From IMG/VR virus record IMGVR_UViG_2681813263_000010: a DNA stretch of 8,174 nt. One strand, given 5' to 3'. Positions 1,899 to 8,174 of this stretch are shown here, in pieces; the first letter of the stretch is position 1; every line of letters starts with the position of its first letter. The notes beneath the pieces are model-generated. The model was not told the origin of the DNA, made no database searches, and saw only the letters and a list, made by a program, of their open reading frames with translations. Origin of the DNA: a virus (lineage: Duplodnaviria > Heunggongvirae > Uroviricota > Caudoviricetes). The position numbers and the translations under genes were made by a program.

Positions 1899-2773
1899 CG
1901 CCTCACACCATCCAGCATGGTCTCTGGTGGCACCCCCTCGCGCAATCTGGCCTTCCAGGCACTGAATGCGGATTTCTTCGGGTTTGCCCCGGCACGCAAC
2001 GGGTATTCCCGCCAGACCTGTTCGAACACATCCGGATAATCCACTCGTCCCACAGGCTGCCCGGTGTTTTCCGGGGCTACCCGATCGGCTTCCCGCTGAA
2101 TGGCGGAATCGGCTTCAGGCTGCTGCAGTTGGAGTGATTGCTCCGGCCTTGCGGTCATCACCTGCTGCACAGCGCCCGAATCGGCTTTCAGCGCATACGC
2201 TGAATCGGCTTCCGGTGTCGAGCCTGCTGGCTGACCAGGATTGACGGTCTGAACATCCCCTGCCTGGTTCGTGGCGTTTTTTACGCCATGGACCATAGTG
2301 TTTTGATCTTCTTTATCTGTATCTTTATCTGTATCTGTCGTGACTCGTCGTGACATGTGCGTGACATTTCGTGACGCGCCGTGACAATCGCCATTTTGTT
2401 CCCGCTTTCTTTCCCTCTCTCGCTGCGCCCTCTTGCGCTCTGCAGGAGATTTTGCGGTTTGCGAAATATTGCCGTTGTCCTCTTTAAGCACCTGGCGTTT
2501 TTCCCATCCAGTGATTAAATCACCATCAAGTACCCGCCCCTGCATCGTCTGCAAAATTGAATCAATTACCTCTTCTGTCACGTCGAGCGCACTTGCCAAA
2601 TCTTCTGTCGTGACATCAATGTGACCTCGCGTGACATTTCGTGACGCGCTCACCAGGAGGTGGATATACACTGCCATCACTGTTGCAATTGGCTGCCCTG
2701 ACACCCTGGCAATTGTTCGCCACTTAGGGTCATTTGGCATGTCATGCCATAATCTGAGCCAGGCGTTAGCCAT
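1899..2773 (-). CDS. phage replication initiator / replisome-organizer protein (O-like, YdaU-like); 3' end masked
   Basis: ATG at 2773-2771 (MANAWLRLWHDMPNDPKWRTIARVSG...) with SD-like AGAGGTGA upstream (track start GTG at 2779). About 290 codons visible before the N-run. Sits immediately upstream of the DnaC-like gene, as in lambdoid O-P / Rac ydaU-ydaV modules. Iteron repeats lie inside the coding sequence. Confidence 0.8.
2310..2337. repeat. AT-rich 12-bp tandem direct repeat (tctttatctgta x2 plus partial) flanking iterons; putative DNA-unwinding element
   Basis: tctttatctgta at 2310-2321 and 2322-2333, then tctg. Encodes the TDKDTDKD repeat in the initiator protein on the opposite strand. 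Confidence 0.75.
2339..2385. repeat. iteron cluster 1: five CGTGAC repeats phased at 10-11 bp (putative origin of replication)
   Basis: CGTGAC at 2339, 2349, 2360, 2370, 2380 (helical phasing), all inside the initiator gene, as for lambda ori inside O. Confidence 0.75.
2577..2649. repeat. iteron cluster 2 (GTCACG 2577; CGTGAC 2609, 2630, 2640; TGTGAC 2620) including a 21-bp exact copy of part of cluster 1
   Basis: gcgtgacatttcgtgacgcgc occurs exactly at 2359-2379 and 2629-2649; tcttctgtc occurs at 2571-2579 and 2601-2609. Confidence 0.7.
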
Positions 2774-2844
2774 ACTCACCTCTTCTGATACCGAATCTTT
2801 TTACTCACGAGTTGCCGGGAGCGATTCGATATGGCTATTGTCAG

Positions 2845-3090
2845 TCAATGTACTGCCACAGCATTTCCTGCCGGGCCACCACGGTTCATCTGATTGAAAC
2901 CGGCGATTGCCACTGCGACAAAATCATCAGCGTCTCTCACCAGTCGTTCATGCGTCTCCACCAGTTCCCGAAAATAAGCTGAACTGTGGCTGCGCATTCG
3001 AGCCACCAGCGGAGGTGGCATTGCCCTTTCGATCGCAGGTAACAACGCCTGAATTTTTTCAACAGCGTCAGGGGTGTCTTTATCCAGCCA
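2845..3090 (-). CDS. cII-position protein (YdaT-like by synteny), C-terminal 82 codons visible; 5' end masked
   Basis: Stop TGA at 2847-2845; frame stays open to the N-run at 3091 (...WLDKDTPDAVEKIQALLPAIERAMPPPLVARMRSHSSAYFRELVETHERLVRDADDFVAVAIAGFNQMNRGGPAGNAVAVH). Lies 71 bp upstream of the initiator start. Family assignment is positional only, not sequence recognition. Confidence 0.5.
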   Translation of the reverse strand, partial: WLDKDTPDAVEKIQALLPAIERAMPPPLVARMRSHSSAYFRELVETHERLVRDADDFVAVAIAGFNQMNRGGPAGNAVAVH

Positions 3091-3718
3091 NNNNNNNNNN
3101 NNNNNNNNNNNNNNNNNNNNNNNNNNNNNNNNNNNNNNNNNNNNNNNNNNNNNNNNNNNNNNNNNNNNNNNNNNNNNNNNNNNNNNNNNNNNNNNNNNNN
3201 NNNNNNNNNNNNNNNNNNNNNNNNNNNNNNNNNNNNNNNNNNNNNNNNNNNNNNNNNNNNNNNNNNNNNNNNNNNNNNNNNNNNNNNNNNNNNNNNNNNN
3301 NNNNNNNNNNNNNNNNNNNNNNNNNNNNNNNNNNNNNNNNNNNNNNNNNNNNNNNNNNNNNNNNNNNNNNNNNNNNNNNNNNNNNNNNNNNNNNNNNNNN
3401 NNNNNNNNNNNNNNNNNNNNNNNNNNNNNNNNNNNNNNNNNNNNNNNNNNNNNNNNNNNNNNNNNAACGTAATATTTTTTCTCCTGTAAGNNNNNNNNNN
3501 NNNNNNNNNNNNNNNNNNNNNNNNNNNNNNNNNNNNNNNNNNNNNNNNNNNNNNNNNNNNNNNNNNNNNNNNNNNNNNNNNNNNNNNNNNNNNNNNNNNN
3601 NNNNNNNNNNNNNNNNNNNNNNNNNNNNNNNNNNNNNNNNNNNNNNNNNNNNNNNNNNNNNAAAAGTAAATAGTGATGCTATTTCAAAGTGATTAGCAAT
3701 CTTATTAGAATTGGATGT

Positions 3719-4219
3719 ATGAAAAGAAAATCATTGTCAGACACCGACCTCAACGCCGCCAGAAGACTGAAAGAAATCTGGATGGCAAAGAAATCTCAGT
3801 TGGGATTGACTCAGGAACGTGCGGCGGAAATTATGGGGTTTTCAACACAAGGGGCGGTAAGTCACTACCTAAATGGTCAAACCCCACTAAACCTTGAGGC
3901 TGTTCTAAAGTTTGCTGGCTTACTGAAAGTTCCCCCTGAGTCAATCAGGCCAGACATGGTAGATTTGCTGCAAATTGCAAGGATGTATTGTCGAGAACCA
4001 CAGCAAGATAACATAGTCGCATTACCAGCAGACACAGAACAAACAGAGGATGAACTACCGTTTGCCGTAGAGCCGATGGAACGAGATTTAATCCATACGT
4101 TCAGAGCTTTTCCGAAAGAAGATCAAGAACACATGCTTCAGGAGATGAAAGATAAAAAAGAATCAATGGATCGTACGGTTGCGCGGTGGTTAGCTGCACA
4201 AAAAGGCCGTCGCGCCTAA
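3719..4219 (+). CDS. HTH (XRE/Cro-CI type) transcriptional regulator, PaaR-like regulator of the three-component TA operon; candidate immunity repressor
   Basis: ATG 3719 (MKRKSLSDTDLNAARRLKEIW...), 166 aa, stop TAA 4217-4219. HTH segment LTQERAAEIMGFSTQGAVSHYLNG. C-terminal motif DLIHTFRAFPKEDQEHMLQEM resembles the DicA C-terminal region as recalled. No peptidase S24 module. Track start GTG 3689 has no SD. Confidence 0.8.
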   Translation: MKRKSLSDTDLNAARRLKEIWMAKKSQLGLTQERAAEIMGFSTQGAVSHYLNGQTPLNLEAVLKFAGLLKVPPESIRPDMVDLLQIARMYCREPQQDNIVALPADTEQTEDELPFAVEPMERDLIHTFRAFPKEDQEHMLQEMKDKKESMDRTVARWLAAQKGRRA

Positions 4220-4238
4220 ATCAGAGGAGATATGTAAA

Positions 4239-4433
4239 ATGAGTACAGTCCTTTCCCCAATGGTTTCAGAATTTGAGACAGTTGAGCAAGAAAATAGTTA
4301 CAACGAATGGCTGCGGGCCAAAGTAGCAGCAAGCCTCGCGGATCCCCGCCCGGCGATTCCGCATGATGAGGTAATGGCGGAAATGGAACAAATTATTGCC
4401 CAAATTGCTGCTGCAACTCACAGAGGTGAATNN
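4239..4433 (+). CDS. paaA: PaaA-family antitoxin (64 aa; stop codon partly masked)
   Basis: SD GAGGA 4225-4229, ATG 4239. N-terminal 45 aa (..LSPMVSEFET.EQENSYNEWLRAKVA.SLADPRPAIPHDEV) matches the PaaA2 antitoxin of E. coli O157 paaR2-paaA2-parE2 as I recall it; the C-terminal 19 aa differ. In-frame codon 4431-4433 is tNN, consistent with a stop. Confidence 0.8.
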
Positions 4434-4469
4434 NNNNNNNNNNNNNNNNNNNNNNNNNNNNNNNNNNNN

Positions 4470-4587
4470 TTATGGCTACCATCTGCTCGTGATGATTTGC
4501 GCCAGATCGTAGCCTACATAGCTAAAGAAAATCCCGCGGCAGCACGCAGAATGAAAATTCGAATTGAAACATCCGTTTTGCCGCTCA
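4470..4587 (+). CDS. parE: ParE/RelE-superfamily toxin, N-terminal part visible (start in gap 4432-4469, 3' part in gap 4588-4730)
   Basis: LWLPSARDDLRQIVAYIAKENPAAARRMKIRIETSVLPL fits the ParE N-terminal helical hairpin pattern (..A..DL..I..YIA..NP.AA......L......LP). Immediately downstream of the PaaA-like antitoxin. Confidence 0.7.
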
Positions 4588-4730
4588 NNNNNNNNNNNNN
4601 NNNNNNNNNNNNNNNNNNNNNNNNNNNNNNNNNNNNNNNNNNNNNNNNNNNNNNNNNNNNNNNNNNNNNNNNNNNNNNNNNNNNNNNNNNNNNNNNNNNN
4701 NNNNNNNNNNNNNNNNNNNNNNNNNNNNNN

Positions 4731-4931
4731 GTATCCCTTTCCTGGTTGCTGACAGGAAAAGAAGATAGCAATAGAGAGACACTTGATGATGATGAGAAAG
4801 CCCTGCTTGATGTTTACAGAAATCTGCCACCTGTAGAACGCAGAAATATGCTTGCAGCTTTTCAAATGCGACTTCAAAAACTGACTGAATTTTATTCAGA
4901 ATACGTTGACCCAGCAACGCGTCAAAAATAA
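4731..4931 (+). CDS. DicA-like HTH repressor, C-terminal 66 codons (N-terminus masked, or a 3' remnant)
   Basis: VSLSWLLTGKEDSNRETLDDDEKALLDVYRNLPPVERRNMLAAFQMRLQKLTEFYSEYVDPATRQK, stop TAA 4929-4931. WLLTG is the typical end of a Cro/CI-type HTH domain; the following motif parallels DicA (..ELLELFNALPESEQDTQLAEM..) as recalled. Position upstream of ydfA-ydfB matches dicA in Qin. Confidence 0.5.
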   Translation, partial: VSLSWLLTGKEDSNRETLDDDEKALLDVYRNLPPVERRNMLAAFQMRLQKLTEFYSEYVDPATRQK

Positions 4932-4953
4932 TTCTTTATTTTACAAAACAATA

Positions 4954-4975
4954 CCGCCGAAAGGCGGTTTTTTTT
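4954..4975 (+). terminator. rho-independent terminator
   Basis: Stem CCGCC (4954-4958), loop GAAA, stem GGCGG (4963-4967), then T8 (4968-4975), 23 bp after the DicA-like stop. An A-rich tract upstream could allow weak activity on the other strand. Confidence 0.8.
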
Positions 4976-4980
4976 GCCTT

Positions 4981-5025
4981 TTATGAATTCATAATGTTGA
5001 CATATGTTCATTTAAAGAGAACAAT
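4981..5025 (+). promoter_or_regulatory. 14-bp perfect palindrome (operator candidate) abutting a sigma70-like promoter for the ydfA-dicB operon
   Basis: TTATGAATTCATAA (4981-4994) is perfectly self-complementary. TTGACA at 4997-5002; 17 bp downstream AACAAT (5020-5025) is a weak -10. About 75 bp upstream of the ydfA ATG. Confidence 0.4.
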
Positions 5026-5412: not shown

Positions 5413-5523
5413 ATGCAGAAACGAGAACCCGTCATCATCGCGCCAGACTATACCGATGATGAACTTTATGAGTGGATTTTGGCGGCATCAGTTTCATTGC
5501 TGGCTGATGTCCGCCCTTTTTAA
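5413..5523 (+). CDS. YdfC-like small ORF (36 aa); 3' end overlaps the DicF-like sRNA
   Basis: SD GAGGAA 5402-5407, ATG 5413, stop TAA 5521-5523. MQKREPVIIAPDYTDDELYEWILAASVSLLADVRPF; the N-terminus resembles YdfC as recalled. The ORF-track 5251..5523 entry is the same frame with a spurious upstream start overlapping ydfB. Confidence 0.5.
   Translation: MQKREPVIIAPDYTDDELYEWILAASVSLLADVRPF
5465..5521 (+). ncRNA. dicF: DicF-like small RNA (processed from the dicB-operon transcript) with 3' terminator hairpin
   Basis: tttatgagtggattttGGCGGcATCAGtttcattgctggCTGATgtCCGCCcttttt resembles K-12 DicF as recalled (UUUCUGGUGACGUUUGGCGGUAUCAGUUUUACUCCGUGACUGCUCUGCCGCCC). Stem GGCGG.ATCAG / CTGAT..CCGCC (5481-5515), U-run 5517-5521. 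Position after ydfC matches Qin. Confidence 0.6.
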
Positions 5524-5703
5524 AGTGAATTTTGTGATGCGGTGAATGCGGCTCAGCGCACGCGGAACAGTTAAAACAGTAAGGAAAATCCCTTATTCCG
5601 GCGTTAATTATTAACTGGTTAACGTCACCTGGAGGCACCAGGCACCGCATCAACAAAGTTCACTTCGGTGATGAAAGGAAAGAGAAAATGTTGAATGTAG
5701 CTA

Positions 5704-5732
5704 TTGAAAACCAGAACGGGTGGAATTATAGT
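5704..5732 (+). promoter_or_regulatory. candidate sigma70 promoter: TTGAAA-N17-TATAGT
   Basis: TTGAAA 5704-5709, 17-bp spacer, TATAGT 5727-5732. Lies inside the stop-free frame upstream of the Rha ATG, arguing that this stretch is leader rather than coding. Confidence 0.4.
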
Positions 5733-5794
5733 GCATCTGCACCTCATAAAACGGGGGCCGGGCGTGGAAACCCGAACGTTACTCGAGCGCATAG

Positions 5795-5815
5795 CCGCGC
5801 TGAAGCGGTTTTTTT
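5795..5815 (+). terminator. weak terminator-like hairpin plus U-run (possible attenuator or sRNA 3' end)
   Basis: CCGC (5795-5798), loop GCTGAA, GCGG (5805-5808), followed by T7 (5809-5815). Only a 4-bp stem; an alternative GCGC/GCGC pairing (5787-5790 with 5797-5800) is mutually exclusive with it. Confidence 0.35.
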
Positions 5816-5984
5816 ATGCGTAATGCACAGCTCCATTCAAATTATGGTGGGATGTGCAGGGCAGTCGCAAGACTGGCCGGGTTCTCGAGTGACCGGTATT
5901 TCCACCCCTGTACGTCTCACCACCCTTATGGTCGTGGAAAACCTCGGTGGTGAGTTAATTAACTTATCACTCGAGGATGCCATC

Positions 5985-6542
5985 ATGGCTACTATCCCTG
6001 CCCTTTCTCACCCTGACGTAACCATCGAAAATGGTCGCGCTGTCACTACGTCTATTGCGATCGCAGAGTTCTTTGGCAAGCGTCACGACAATGTGTTACG
6101 TGCCATCGCAAATACTGAATGCTCACCTGAATTTAACGCCCTCAATTTTGAGGACGTCACCTACACTGACGCCAAAGGCGAAAAACGCCCGATGTACCAA
6201 ATCACCAAAAACGGCTTCGTTTTCCTGGTGATGGGATTCACTGGCAAAAAAGCCGCTGCATTCAAAGAAGCCTACATTGCTGAGTTCGACCGCATGGAGG
6301 CCGAACTGCGCCAGAATAACACCCCACCCACTGACAAAATAATTCCAGGCGATGGCCGCACCCTGGTTGTTCACTTCGACGAACGCGGCAACATCAGATT
6401 CACCGAAACCGTTCCTGATGGCGCACGGGTCTGTACCATGGAGACTTTCCGGTTTTATCTGGAAGAACAGGGATGGACTCTTGTTAACCGGGGCGCAATT
6501 AAAAATATGACTGTAGAGCAATTACTCAAAATTCATTGTTGA
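5985..6542 (+). CDS. Rha-family phage regulatory protein (185 aa)
   Basis: SD GAGGA 5972-5976, ATG 5985, stop TGA 6540-6542. N-terminal domain ..ENGRAVTTSIAIAEFFGKRHDNVLRAI...DAKGEKRPMYQITKNGFVFLVMGFTGKKAAAFKEAYIAEFDRME matches the Rha (pRha) signature. Track ORF 5688..6542 is the same frame with an upstream extension judged non-coding. Confidence 0.8.
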   Translation: MATIPALSHPDVTIENGRAVTTSIAIAEFFGKRHDNVLRAIANTECSPEFNALNFEDVTYTDAKGEKRPMYQITKNGFVFLVMGFTGKKAAAFKEAYIAEFDRMEAELRQNNTPPTDKIIPGDGRTLVVHFDERGNIRFTETVPDGARVCTMETFRFYLEEQGWTLVNRGAIKNMTVEQLLKIHC

Positions 6543-6552
6543 GGACGCGATA

Positions 6553-6741
6553 ATGGAAACGTTATTACCAAACGTTAATACGACTGAAGGTTGTTTTGAA
6601 ATTGGTGTCACTATCAGTAACACGGTATTTACTGAAGATGCCATTAACAAGAGAAAACACGAACGGGAGCTATTAAATAAAATATGCATTGTTTCAATGC
6701 TGGCTCGTTTGCGTCTGATGCAAAAAGGATGCTGGCGATGA
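6553..6741 (+). CDS. dicB: DicB cell-division inhibitor (62 aa)
   Basis: SD GAGGA 6541-6545, ATG 6553, stop TGA 6739-6741. METLLPNVNTTEGCFEIGVTISNTVFTEDAINKRKHERELLNKICIVSMLARLRLMQKGCWR, near-identical in pattern to K-12 DicB as recalled. Confidence 0.9.
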   Translation: METLLPNVNTTEGCFEIGVTISNTVFTEDAINKRKHERELLNKICIVSMLARLRLMQKGCWR

Positions 6742-6929
6742 ATACAGCATTTGCACTCGTTCTGACCGTTATTCTTAATACGGGCGAACCAGCTGAACTG
6801 GTTACCGGAGTATACAACTCCATGAAAGAATGCGTGGCTGCTGCAGCTGAACAGAAAATTCCCGGTAACTGTTATCCGGTTGATAAAATCATTCACCAGG
6901 ATAATAAAGAAGTCCCGGCAGGTCTTTAA
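6738..6929 (+). CDS. ydfD: YdfD-like small protein (63 aa; family reported as lysis-associated)
   Basis: ATG 6738-6740 overlaps the dicB stop (ATGA); SD AAGGA 6724-6728; stop TAA 6927-6929. MNTAFALVLTVILNTGEPAELVTGVYNSMKECVAAAAEQKIPGNCYPVDKIIHQDNKEVPAGL. Hydrophobic N-terminal segment. Confidence 0.85.
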   Translation: MNTAFALVLTVILNTGEPAELVTGVYNSMKECVAAAAEQKIPGNCYPVDKIIHQDNKEVPAGL

Positions 6930-7228
6930 AGCANNNNNNNNNNNNNNNNNNNNNNNNNNNNNNNNNNNNNNNNNNNNNNNNNNNNNNNNNNNNNNNNNNN
7001 NNNNNNNNNNNNNNNNNNNNNNNNNNNNNNNNNNNNNNNNNNNNNNNNNNNNNNNNNNNNNNNNNNNNNNNNNNNNNNNNNNNNNNNNNNNNNNNNNNNN
7101 NNNNNNNNNNNNNNNNNNNNNNNNNNNNNNNNNNNNNNNNNNNNNNNNNNNNNNNNNNNNNNNNNNNNNNNNNNNNNNNNNNNNNNNNNNNNNNNNNNNN
7201 NNNNNNNNNNNNNNNNNNNNNNNNNNNN

Positions 7229-8145
7229 CGGCTGCTCAGGACTGCGCTTATAAATTTATTGTCTGCGAGGATAAACCTGGTATACCCCGCCCTGCCCTCG
7301 ATTCCTGGGATGCTGAATATATGCAGGAAAACCGCTGGGATGAGGAGTCTGCTTCCTTTGTCCCGGTTGAGACTGAATCCGAACCGATGAACGTCACTTT
7401 TGACAAGCTGGCCCCTGAAGTACAGAACGCTGTCATGGTTAAGTTCGACACATGTGAAAACATCACCGTTGATATGGTGATTAGCGCGCAGGAACTGTTG
7501 CAGGAAGACATGGCAACATTCGACGGACATATCGTTGAAGCGTTGATGAAAATGCCAGAAGTTAACGCCATGTGTCCGGAGATTAAACTGCATGCCATCG
7601 GGTGGATTAAGCATAAATGTAAGCCTGGTGCAAAATGGCCAGAAATTCAGGCAGAGATGCGCATCTGGAAAAAATGTCGCGAAGGTGAACGCAAGGAAAC
7701 CGGAAAATACACGTCTGTTGTTGATCTCGCCCGTGCCAGAGCCAATCAACAGCACACTGAAAATTCAACAGGAAAAATCAGCCCGGCCATTGCTGCCATT
7801 CATCGCGAATACAAGCAGACATGGAAAACACTGGATGACGAACTGGCCTACGCTCTCTGGCCTGGTGATGTGGATGCCGGAAACATTGACGGCAGCATCC
7901 ATCGCTGGGCAAAAAATGAAGTTATCGACAACGACCGCGAAGACTGGAAGCGTATCTCGGCATCAATGCGCAAACAGCCTGATGCCCTTCGCTACGACCG
8001 CCAGACTATTTTTGGCCTTGTCCGTGAACGTCCGATCGACATTCACAAAGACCCTGTGGCACTGAACAAATACATTACTGAATACCTGACTACAAAGGGC
8101 GTGTTTGAAGATGAAGGAACAAATCAGAGCGCAACTGATACTTGA
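7229..8145 (+). CDS. hypothetical prophage protein, C-terminal ~305 codons visible (5' end masked); YdfE-position gene
   Basis: Long stop-free frame from the gap edge to TGA 8143-8145 (..AAQDCAYKFIVCEDKPGIPRP...EYLTTKGVFEDEGTNQSATDT). Antisense ORFs over the same span are N-run artefacts or shorter. No family recognised. Confidence 0.6.
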
Positions 8146-8174
8146 GGTGTACTGGCAATAGCGGACACTACCAT

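Follow-up and report, generated by a model that had tools for sequence, protein, structure and literature searches.

The window analyzed here, an 8,174-nucleotide (nt) stretch of DNA from the Caudoviricetes record IMGVR_UViG_2681813263_000010 of IMG/VR, carries a cassette of three genes that encode a regulator, an antitoxin and a toxin, all on the plus strand within positions 3719 to 4587 (Table 1). An earlier note on this DNA had read the cassette as a three-gene toxin-antitoxin system of the paaR-paaA-parE type, which is represented by paaR2-paaA2-parE2 of Escherichia coli O157:H7 prophage CP-933P (Hallez 2010; Sterckx 2014, 2016; Jurenas 2021). All three reading frames were found where the note had placed them, and their products were assigned to families by comparison with Pfam and PDB, with no contradicting evidence met for any of the three. 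Gene order and the family matches of all three proteins supported the paaR-paaA-parE-type arrangement. Moreover, the cassette lies, as had been claimed, downstream of the repressor in a lambdoid immunity region at the position of rexAB, a placement that is stated for CP-933P in the literature (PMC9986795). The end coordinate of the span did not stand, as 4587 marks the edge of a run of N and not the end of a gene.

Comparison with other genomes placed the cassette in a cryptic prophage of the Shigella sonnei type. Positions 1-1513, 1899-3090, 3662-4431, 4470-4587 and 7229-8174 of the window were 99.9 to 100% identical to the prophage of S. sonnei 53G, and the cassette DNA within them (3662-4431 and 4470-4587) was 100% identical, as it was in other S. 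sonnei genomes. Positions 5478-6933 were about 99% identical to the same prophage, save for copies of the insertion sequence (IS) IS1 in S. sonnei. The exact regulator protein occurred in 6004 index blocks of a public assembly collection, the finished genome of S. sonnei 53G (HE616528) among them. Two complete E. coli genomes carried the cassette at 99.3 to 99.5% identity, annotated as a helix-turn-helix (HTH) protein, a RelB-family antitoxin and a RelE/ParE toxin of 96 amino acids (aa) (WP_001343764.1, WP_005142544.1 and WP_014334020.1). In every finished relative the cassette was intact and the toxin was 96 aa long; no near match to the cassette was found in the phage collection. The relatives shared a gene context in which DUF1627, a DnaC-like gene, a replication gene, ydaT and ydaS are followed divergently by the regulator, paaA and parE, and then by ydfA and further genes through dicB and an exonuclease gene. 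The divergent orientation of ydaT-ydaS was seen in the 100%-identical relatives; in the window, ydaS and ydaT are masked by N, and a 25-nt island at 3466-3490 maps inside ydaS of those relatives. We conclude that the locus is very probably a copy of the known PaaR-PaaA-ParE three-gene toxin-antitoxin module of lambda-like prophages, as found in S. sonnei.

In the relatives, the three genes follow one another on one strand, separated first by a 19-nt spacer and then joined by a 1-nt overlap. In the window, the toxin start, the antitoxin/toxin junction and toxin codons 44 to 96, including the C-terminal beta-sheet part, lie behind two N runs, the first of which stands in place of 13 nt that contain a TAATG stop/start overlap in relatives. 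The toxin DNA that is visible is 118 nt long and reads LWLPSARDDLRQIVAYIAKENPAAARRMKIRIETSVLPL.

Table 1. Features in and around the cassette, in window coordinates
Feature	Position	Strand	Remark
Operator-like 15-base-pair (bp) palindrome AATAGTGATGCTATT	3669-3683		Centered about -43 from the regulator ATG, OR2-like position; predicted function
Promoter-like site, TTCAAA-17-TAGAAT	3683-3711	+	End of -10 element 7 nt upstream of the ATG (3719)
Operator-like 15-bp pseudo-palindrome ATTAGCAATCTTATT	3692-3706		Between -35 and -10, OR3-like position; predicted function
Regulator open reading frame (ORF), 166 aa	3719-4219	+	Lambda CI-like N-terminal domain; C-terminal domain shared with PaaR/DicA
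PaaA-family antitoxin, 64 aa	4239-4433	+	No DNA-binding domain; of the stop codon, only the first base (4431) is visible
N run, 38 nt	4432-4469		Masks the antitoxin stop and toxin codons 1-4
ParE-family toxin, codons 5-43 and first base of codon 44	4470-4587	+	N-terminal alpha-hairpin
N run, 143 nt	4588-4730		Where the last 161 nt of parE are expected
3' half (codons 62-127 and stop) of a different, 127-aa CI/DicA-type repressor gene	4731-4931	+	Outside the cassette
Terminator-like hairpin and T run	4953-4968	+	Of the foreign repressor gene
Promoter-like site, TTGACA-17-AACAAT	4997-5025	+	Overlaps palindrome TGTTCAtttaaagaGAACA (5005-5023), the operator type of another immunity group

Antitoxin and toxin families and their specificity class

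The antitoxin matched PF21217 (PaaA2) at 81.9 bits against a cut-off of 27 (expect value [E], 3e-23), as its sole Pfam match, and it also matched NCBIfam NF050103 at 94.3 bits (cut-off, 50) and the PaaA2 chain of PDB 3zbe (E, 2.4e-22); parE lies directly downstream. The visible 39-aa toxin fragment matched PF05016 (ParE_toxin) at 26.5 bits, above the curated cut-off of 23 (E, 9.5e-6), which places it within ParE/RelE as had been supposed. The fragment was 100% identical to the 5' part of the intact 96-aa parE genes of relatives, and a full-length 96-aa relative reached 64.1 bits with PF05016 and an E of 6.7e-37 with ParE2 (PDB 5cw7_B).

Region-wise identities were taken against two reference loci of O157:H7. 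The locus L042 encodes exactly PaaA2 and ParE2, in that its proteins contain the PDB sequences, together with the 123-aa PaaR2, and L031 is the second O157:H7 locus. O157-type genomes hold both paralogue loci at separate places, and the literature places a paralogue, paaR1-paaA1-parE1, in prophage CP-933M. By elimination, the other O157 locus being the one that encodes exact PaaA2, we infer that L031 is paaR1-paaA1-parE1 of CP-933M. Against PaaA2 and ParE2, identity was 40/45 over antitoxin residues 1 to 45 and 2/18 in the antitoxin tail, consistent with the conserved N terminus and divergent C terminus that the earlier note had described, and it was 23/43 over toxin residues 1 to 43 and 39/49 over residues 44 to 92. 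Against L031, the corresponding figures were 37/45 for the antitoxin N-terminal part, 38/43 (88%) for the toxin hairpin and 41/49 for the toxin core, and the tails shared MAEME[QN][IL]IAQIA.

A search of 5.8 billion proteins found 435 members of the PaaA family, from which 40 representatives were sampled, and a VMAEM..LI.QIA tail was present in almost all of those 40. The tail of the window antitoxin has the form VMAEME..IAQIA. We conclude that the window tail appears to be the norm of the family and the tail of PaaA2 the outlier.

Across four distinct pairs only, the antitoxin tail and the two-helix hairpin of the toxin vary together, while the rest of both proteins is conserved. Such co-variation in so few pairs would fit a co-evolving contact surface that serves as a swappable specificity module. 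Sterckx and colleagues (2016) reportedly found that the second helix of PaaA2 sets specificity. One possibility is that the tail of the window antitoxin defines a new neutralization specificity, apart from every characterized PaaA/ParE pair. This would agree with the low identity of tail and hairpin to PaaA2 and ParE2, and there are differences from L031 as well: the tail is one residue longer and ends AAATHRGE instead of VTNKSE, and 5 of the 43 hairpin residues are changed. However, the core of the tail helix is common to the second O157 paralogue and to most of the inspected family members, the hairpin is nearly that of the L031 paralogue, and non-cross-reactivity between the two O157 classes has already been published. 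We consider a new specificity quite improbable.

The published distinction concerns PaaA1 and PaaA2: according to a review that summarizes Hallez 2010 (PMC4803016), PaaA1 does not neutralize ParE2, nor does PaaA2 neutralize ParE1. The suggestion in the earlier note that the pair may differ in specificity is reasonable, but the distinction is one already reported, and the tail is shared with the second O157:H7 paralogue. We conclude that, because non-cross-neutralization between PaaA1 and PaaA2 is on record, the window pair most likely belongs to the existing PaaA1/ParE1-like specificity class and not to a new one.

The regulator and its predicted operators

The regulator matched Pfam HTH_3 (E, 8e-9), and its residues 2 to 81 matched the N-terminal domain of lambda repressor (PDB 1lmb; E, 2.9e-9); over residues 2 to 90, matches to 1lmb and 3bdn had E values from 3e-9 to 1e-8. 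At the other end of the protein, the last 44 aa were 52% identical to PaaR2 (E, 5e-15) and the last 64 aa were 56% identical to the regulator of L031, and no similarity to either regulator was found by BLASTP outside this C-terminal domain. The C-terminal part also resembled the C-terminal part of the NCBIfam DicA model at an E of 7e-8, below the curated cut-off. No Peptidase_S24 domain was found in the regulator with Pfam and NCBIfam profiles.

The PaaR-type regulators of the window, L042 and L031 have in common a C-terminal domain of about 45 to 65 aa alone, and their N-terminal DNA-binding domains are mutually unrelated. This difference is a modular exchange of the DNA-binding domain among family members, in keeping with their different immunity specificities, and gives no ground for excluding the window regulator. 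We conclude that, by all the features tested, the cassette belongs to the paaR-paaA-parE family, except for the regulator's DNA-binding domain, which appears to have been swapped for a CI-like one.

A promoter-like site lies immediately upstream of the regulator, and no Shine-Dalgarno sequence was found upstream of the ATG at 3719. Because the -10 element of the site is only 7 nt from the ATG, the regulator mRNA is predicted to be leaderless and to start at its own ATG. Operator-like sites surround this promoter. The S. sonnei prophage locus (L008) has five copies of the palindrome AATAG-N5-CTATT, three of them in the stretch that separates ydaS from the regulator and two immediately past the terminator of parE; no other copy was found in the 12.5 kb of that locus. 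Of the three upstream copies, the window shows two, and the third, centered near -68, is masked by N. The centers of the three copies lie at about -68, -43 and -20 from the ATG, which we take to resemble the positions of lambda OR1, OR2 and OR3 relative to PRM.

Published descriptions of CP-933P bear on these features. PaaR2 has been described there as a functional analogue of CI without sequence similarity to CI and without a RecA-cleavage domain, YdaS as Cro-like and YdaT as CII-like; paaR2 is leaderless like lambda cI, and the prophage has a PL/OL region (PMC8630535). Moreover, paaA2-parE2 stand in for rexA-rexB in CP-933P, and PaaR2 stands in for CI (PMC9986795). The idea that the regulator doubles as the immunity repressor, raised in the earlier note, is published for PaaR2 (PMC8630535) and is not new; the present allele adds the CI-like domain, the predicted leaderless start and the predicted operators.

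The sequence after parE codon 43

Several points weigh against the reading of the locus as a module of this kind. Neither the start of parE nor its final 53 codons, nor the region that follows the gene, can be seen in the window. The DNA past the 143-nt N run belongs to another immunity type and is not the downstream region of parE itself, and therefore the module may be non-functional as a toxin-antitoxin pair in this sequence. In addition, the sites counted for the operator motif were also those from which it had been defined, such that an enrichment statistic from shuffled sequence is circular and the placement of the sites is the informative part. Finally, the PaaA1/ParE1 label of L031 was reached by elimination.

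The foreign repressor segment was 100% identical to codons 62 to 127 of a counterpart (protein P0002 of locus L003), with the stop codon at 4929-4931. The palindrome TGTTCAtttaaagaGAACA occurs at both regulatory regions of prophages that carry the 127-aa repressor, and the S. sonnei prophage lacks it. Completion of parE would need 161 nt, completion of the foreign repressor 183 nt and completion of both 344 nt, and 143 positions are available. Taken at face value, parE would be truncated, and the left operator and promoter would come from another immunity type. Because the 3' half of another repressor follows the N run, an intact toxin is not to be assumed; either the toxin is truncated here or the scaffold is chimeric.

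The window contains six N runs (1514-1898, 3091-3465, 3491-3661, 4432-4469, 4588-4730 and 6934-7228), and the five that could be measured against relatives with identical flanks exceeded the matching stretch by 63, 71, 6, 25 and 61 nt. This suggests that the runs are estimated scaffold gaps and not length-preserving masks. The features of the runs probably reflect a short-read draft scaffold, in which their lengths would be unreliable at face value. The apparent linkage of parE codon 43 to the foreign repressor fragment may then be unreliable too, and the real locus would have an intact 96-aa parE with its own terminator and operators, parE running CAGAGCATCC and onward to its stop, followed by AATAGCGATGCTATT. 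We give this account about an even chance.

Consistent with a draft scaffold, all five measurable N runs were too long when set against the 100%-identical relatives, and the excess of 25 nt falls in the 13-nt stop/start overlap between flanks that are themselves 100% identical. A 25-nt island stands between two N runs, and in S. sonnei 53G an IS is located about 10 nt from the point that corresponds to the right end of the window, which suggests that the window is a whole scaffold. A draft contig of S. sonnei (L016) likewise has an 886-nt N run in place of an expected 719 nt, and a 157-nt deletion in its parE begins at the exact base where the N run of the window (4588) begins. The junction occurred in 0 of 5426 complete E. 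coli genomes, and no ParE-repressor fusion protein was found among the 5.8 billion proteins. Moreover, parE was intact, with matching operators after it, in each of the nine IMG/VR contigs that share its 5' end with the window, and the left operator type of the window, as assembled, does not match its repressor. Against a simple chimera, however, the foreign segment 4731-5477 runs free of N into positions 5478-6933, the stretch shared with the S. sonnei prophage, and further differences set the window apart from its relatives, one being the 111 nt missing in frame at 91/92. The 3' part of parE is single-copy in the two E. coli carriers, which leaves simple repeat collapse unsupported, and the hidden segments have an ordinary base composition.

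Candidate causes of the N runs were rejected in turn. Repeat collapse was set aside on the single-copy state of the parE 3' part, and bias in base composition on the ordinary GC content of the hidden segments; the hidden segments showed no resemblance to the other type of prophage. A 9-nt direct repeat, CTCACAGAG, is present in L008 at 6699-6707 (the end of paaA) and 6841-6849 (parE codons 42 to 45), 142 nt apart, and its copies fall near the starts of two N runs of the window (about 4417-4425, and from 4584 onward). As an explanation of the N runs, this repeat accounted for nothing testable.

The arrangement may instead be real: recombination with a prophage that has another immunity type, either illegitimate or mediated by an IS, would have removed the 3' part of parE. 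In that case ...GCCGCTCA of parE would join the repressor fragment, and the cassette would be reduced to its repressor gene and a PaaA antitoxin without a partner, with an inactive remnant of the toxin gene and half a repressor gene of foreign origin beside them. The 143-nt N run is shorter than the stretch that would finish parE, and far shorter than that required for both genes. The window has private structural differences, in that 111 nt are missing in frame at 91/92 and IS1 is missing, and in an independent S. sonnei record the ParE (P0059) is truncated to 64 aa and breaks at the same codon, so that C-terminal loss of the toxin is indeed seen in public data. Loss of the toxin with retention of the antitoxin would also be the expected viable route out of an addiction module, if one extends the hypothesis advanced in PMC8630535. 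On the other side, no second example of the parE-repressor junction was found in any collection searched, and the lengths of the N runs are demonstrably unreliable. Furthermore, a truncated repressor together with its left operator would leave dicB and its neighbors unrepressed unless another prophage supplied the repressor. We regard a genuine truncation as a tentative possibility, and the specific event, in which recombination between two immunity types cut parE after codon 43 and joined the repressor and antitoxin to the repressor 3' half, left operator and promoter of another prophage, as somewhat unlikely.

The independent record is L016 positions 1615-1809 (S. sonnei draft CXDD01000391.1), in which a 157-nt internal deletion of parE yields the 64-aa product P0059, deposited as "putative plasmid stabilization-like protein from prophage." No match was found in viral or genome contigs for a gapped DNA pattern that spanned the N run, nor in metagenome contigs for exact patterns. 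Where a viral contig matched one of the flanks, it came from an ordinary prophage of one or the other type that was intact. A chimeric query of ParE residues 1 to 43 and repressor residues 62 to 127 met no protein that spanned both halves (5.8 billion proteins), exact-protein look-up of two start variants of a Rha-like ORF gave no match, and a look-up of YdfA returned ten contexts, none of which (0/10) had the parE-repressor junction.

A true truncation would bear on the proposal that the module guards immunity regions from recombination. The locus would then be a natural footprint of an immunity region that escaped a toxin-antitoxin module proposed to guard against such recombination, and the orphan PaaA could protect the host against incoming modules of the ParE1 class. 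The possible recombinational loss of the toxin is the sole reading of the locus that carries some novelty.

Neighboring features, proposed function and comparison with known systems

Other differences and features lie at a distance from the cassette. At 6445-6454 the window has an uninterrupted site where S. sonnei 53G carries IS1 (L008 9973-10670), and the two flanking alignments overlap there by 10 nt. At 91/92, the 111 nt missing in frame fall inside a DUF977 gene and are present in every otherwise 100%-identical relative; no direct repeat was seen at this deletion junction. The genes dicB (62 aa) and DUF1482 lie at 6553-6929 in a leftward operon, as in Qin/Rac-type prophages, and their repression would depend on the operator type that truly precedes ydfA. 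Rfam models detected an isrK Hfq-binding RNA at 5739-5815 (plus strand; 59.6 bits) and a C4 antisense RNA at 5840-5927 (plus strand; 76.7 bits), both within the first 80 or so codons of a 284-aa Rha/antirepressor-like ORF at 5688-6542. The long start of this ORF is probably spurious, and the isrK/C4 region looks like an antirepressor control module of the P1 c4-ant or Gifsy-1 isrK-anrP type.

Returning to the cassette as a PaaR-PaaA-ParE module, we propose that the locus would be the immunity region of an S. sonnei-type lambdoid cryptic prophage. The promoter geometry suggests that the 166-aa repressor would be made from a leaderless transcript starting at its own ATG. Its CI-like N-terminal domain would bind the 15-bp AATAG-N5-CTATT palindromes, arranged like lambda OR1 to OR3, and the two further sites downstream of parE in intact relatives could serve in an OL-like manner. 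Binding would silence the divergent, Cro/CII-like ydaS/ydaT operon and regulate the repressor's own operon, as has been shown experimentally for PaaR2. The paaA and parE genes would be transcribed together with the repressor gene and downstream of it, at the place that rexAB holds in lambda, and PaaA would neutralize ParE by wrapping two helices around the toxin, as shown for PaaA2-ParE2 and expected here by homology. As a member of the PaaA family, the antitoxin would also be expected to undergo degradation by Clp proteases. The tail and hairpin would put the pair in a common class with the second O157:H7 paralogue (PaaA1/ParE1-like) and not in the PaaA2/ParE2 class. Most likely, the module would act as an addiction element that stabilizes the immunity region, as proposed for CP-933P.

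The cassette is one of the common alleles of a family that has been studied; Pfam and NCBIfam name it correctly, and it can be annotated as such. Its exact sequences are abundant in public genomes, and the functional ideas of the earlier note were already in the literature. What goes beyond that note is the CI-homologous N-terminal domain of the repressor with its lambda-like operator placement, and the half of a foreign repressor after the N run. This allele, widespread in Shigella/E. coli, ties regulators of the PaaR type to lambda CI through detectable sequence homology, and it may offer a cleaner system than PaaR2 in which to study how a toxin-antitoxin pair is controlled in a CI-like manner.

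The locus resembles paaR2-paaA2-parE2 of CP-933P in its three-gene order, in its location within the immunity region of a lambdoid prophage, where it diverges from ydaS/ydaT, and in a promoter geometry that fits a leaderless transcript. Both systems have an antitoxin without a DNA-binding domain, and they are alike in the antitoxin N-terminal part (40/45), the toxin core (39/49) and the last 44 aa of the regulator (52%). They differ in the antitoxin tail, which is unrelated (2/18), and in the toxin hairpin (23/43). Moreover, unlike PaaR2, the window regulator has a DNA-binding domain that is unrelated to that of PaaR2 and homologous to the N-terminal domain of lambda CI, and its predicted operator is AATAG-N5-CTATT, whereas the half-site consensus reported for CP-933P is GTTTAGTAA (PMC8630535).

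The likeness to L031, taken as paaR1-paaA1-parE1 of CP-933M, extends to the tail class (VMAEME.LIAQIA), the hairpin (38/43), the toxin core (41/49) and the last 64 aa of the regulator (56%). The regulators (133 aa in L031 and 166 aa in the window) differ in their N-terminal DNA-binding domains, and the L031 antitoxin has 63 aa, against 64 aa in the window, with different end residues. The closest counterpart is S. sonnei 53G (HE616528), in which the visible cassette DNA is 100% identical and the regulator protein is identical. There, parE runs to its full 96 aa, with its own terminator and two copies of the operator behind it, whereas the window has an N run and a foreign repressor fragment.

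The arrangement is also like that of lambda cI-rexA-rexB. The N-terminal domain of the repressor is homologous to that of CI (E, 3e-9), and accessory genes appear to be co-transcribed behind the repressor. Three operator-like sites at about -68, -43 and -20 are placed much like OR1 to OR3 relative to PRM, and the start is apparently leaderless. Unlike lambda CI, the regulator has a short C-terminal domain of the PaaR/DicA type in place of the S24 peptidase/RecA-cleavage domain, and unlike lambda, the accessory genes are a toxin-antitoxin pair and not RexAB.

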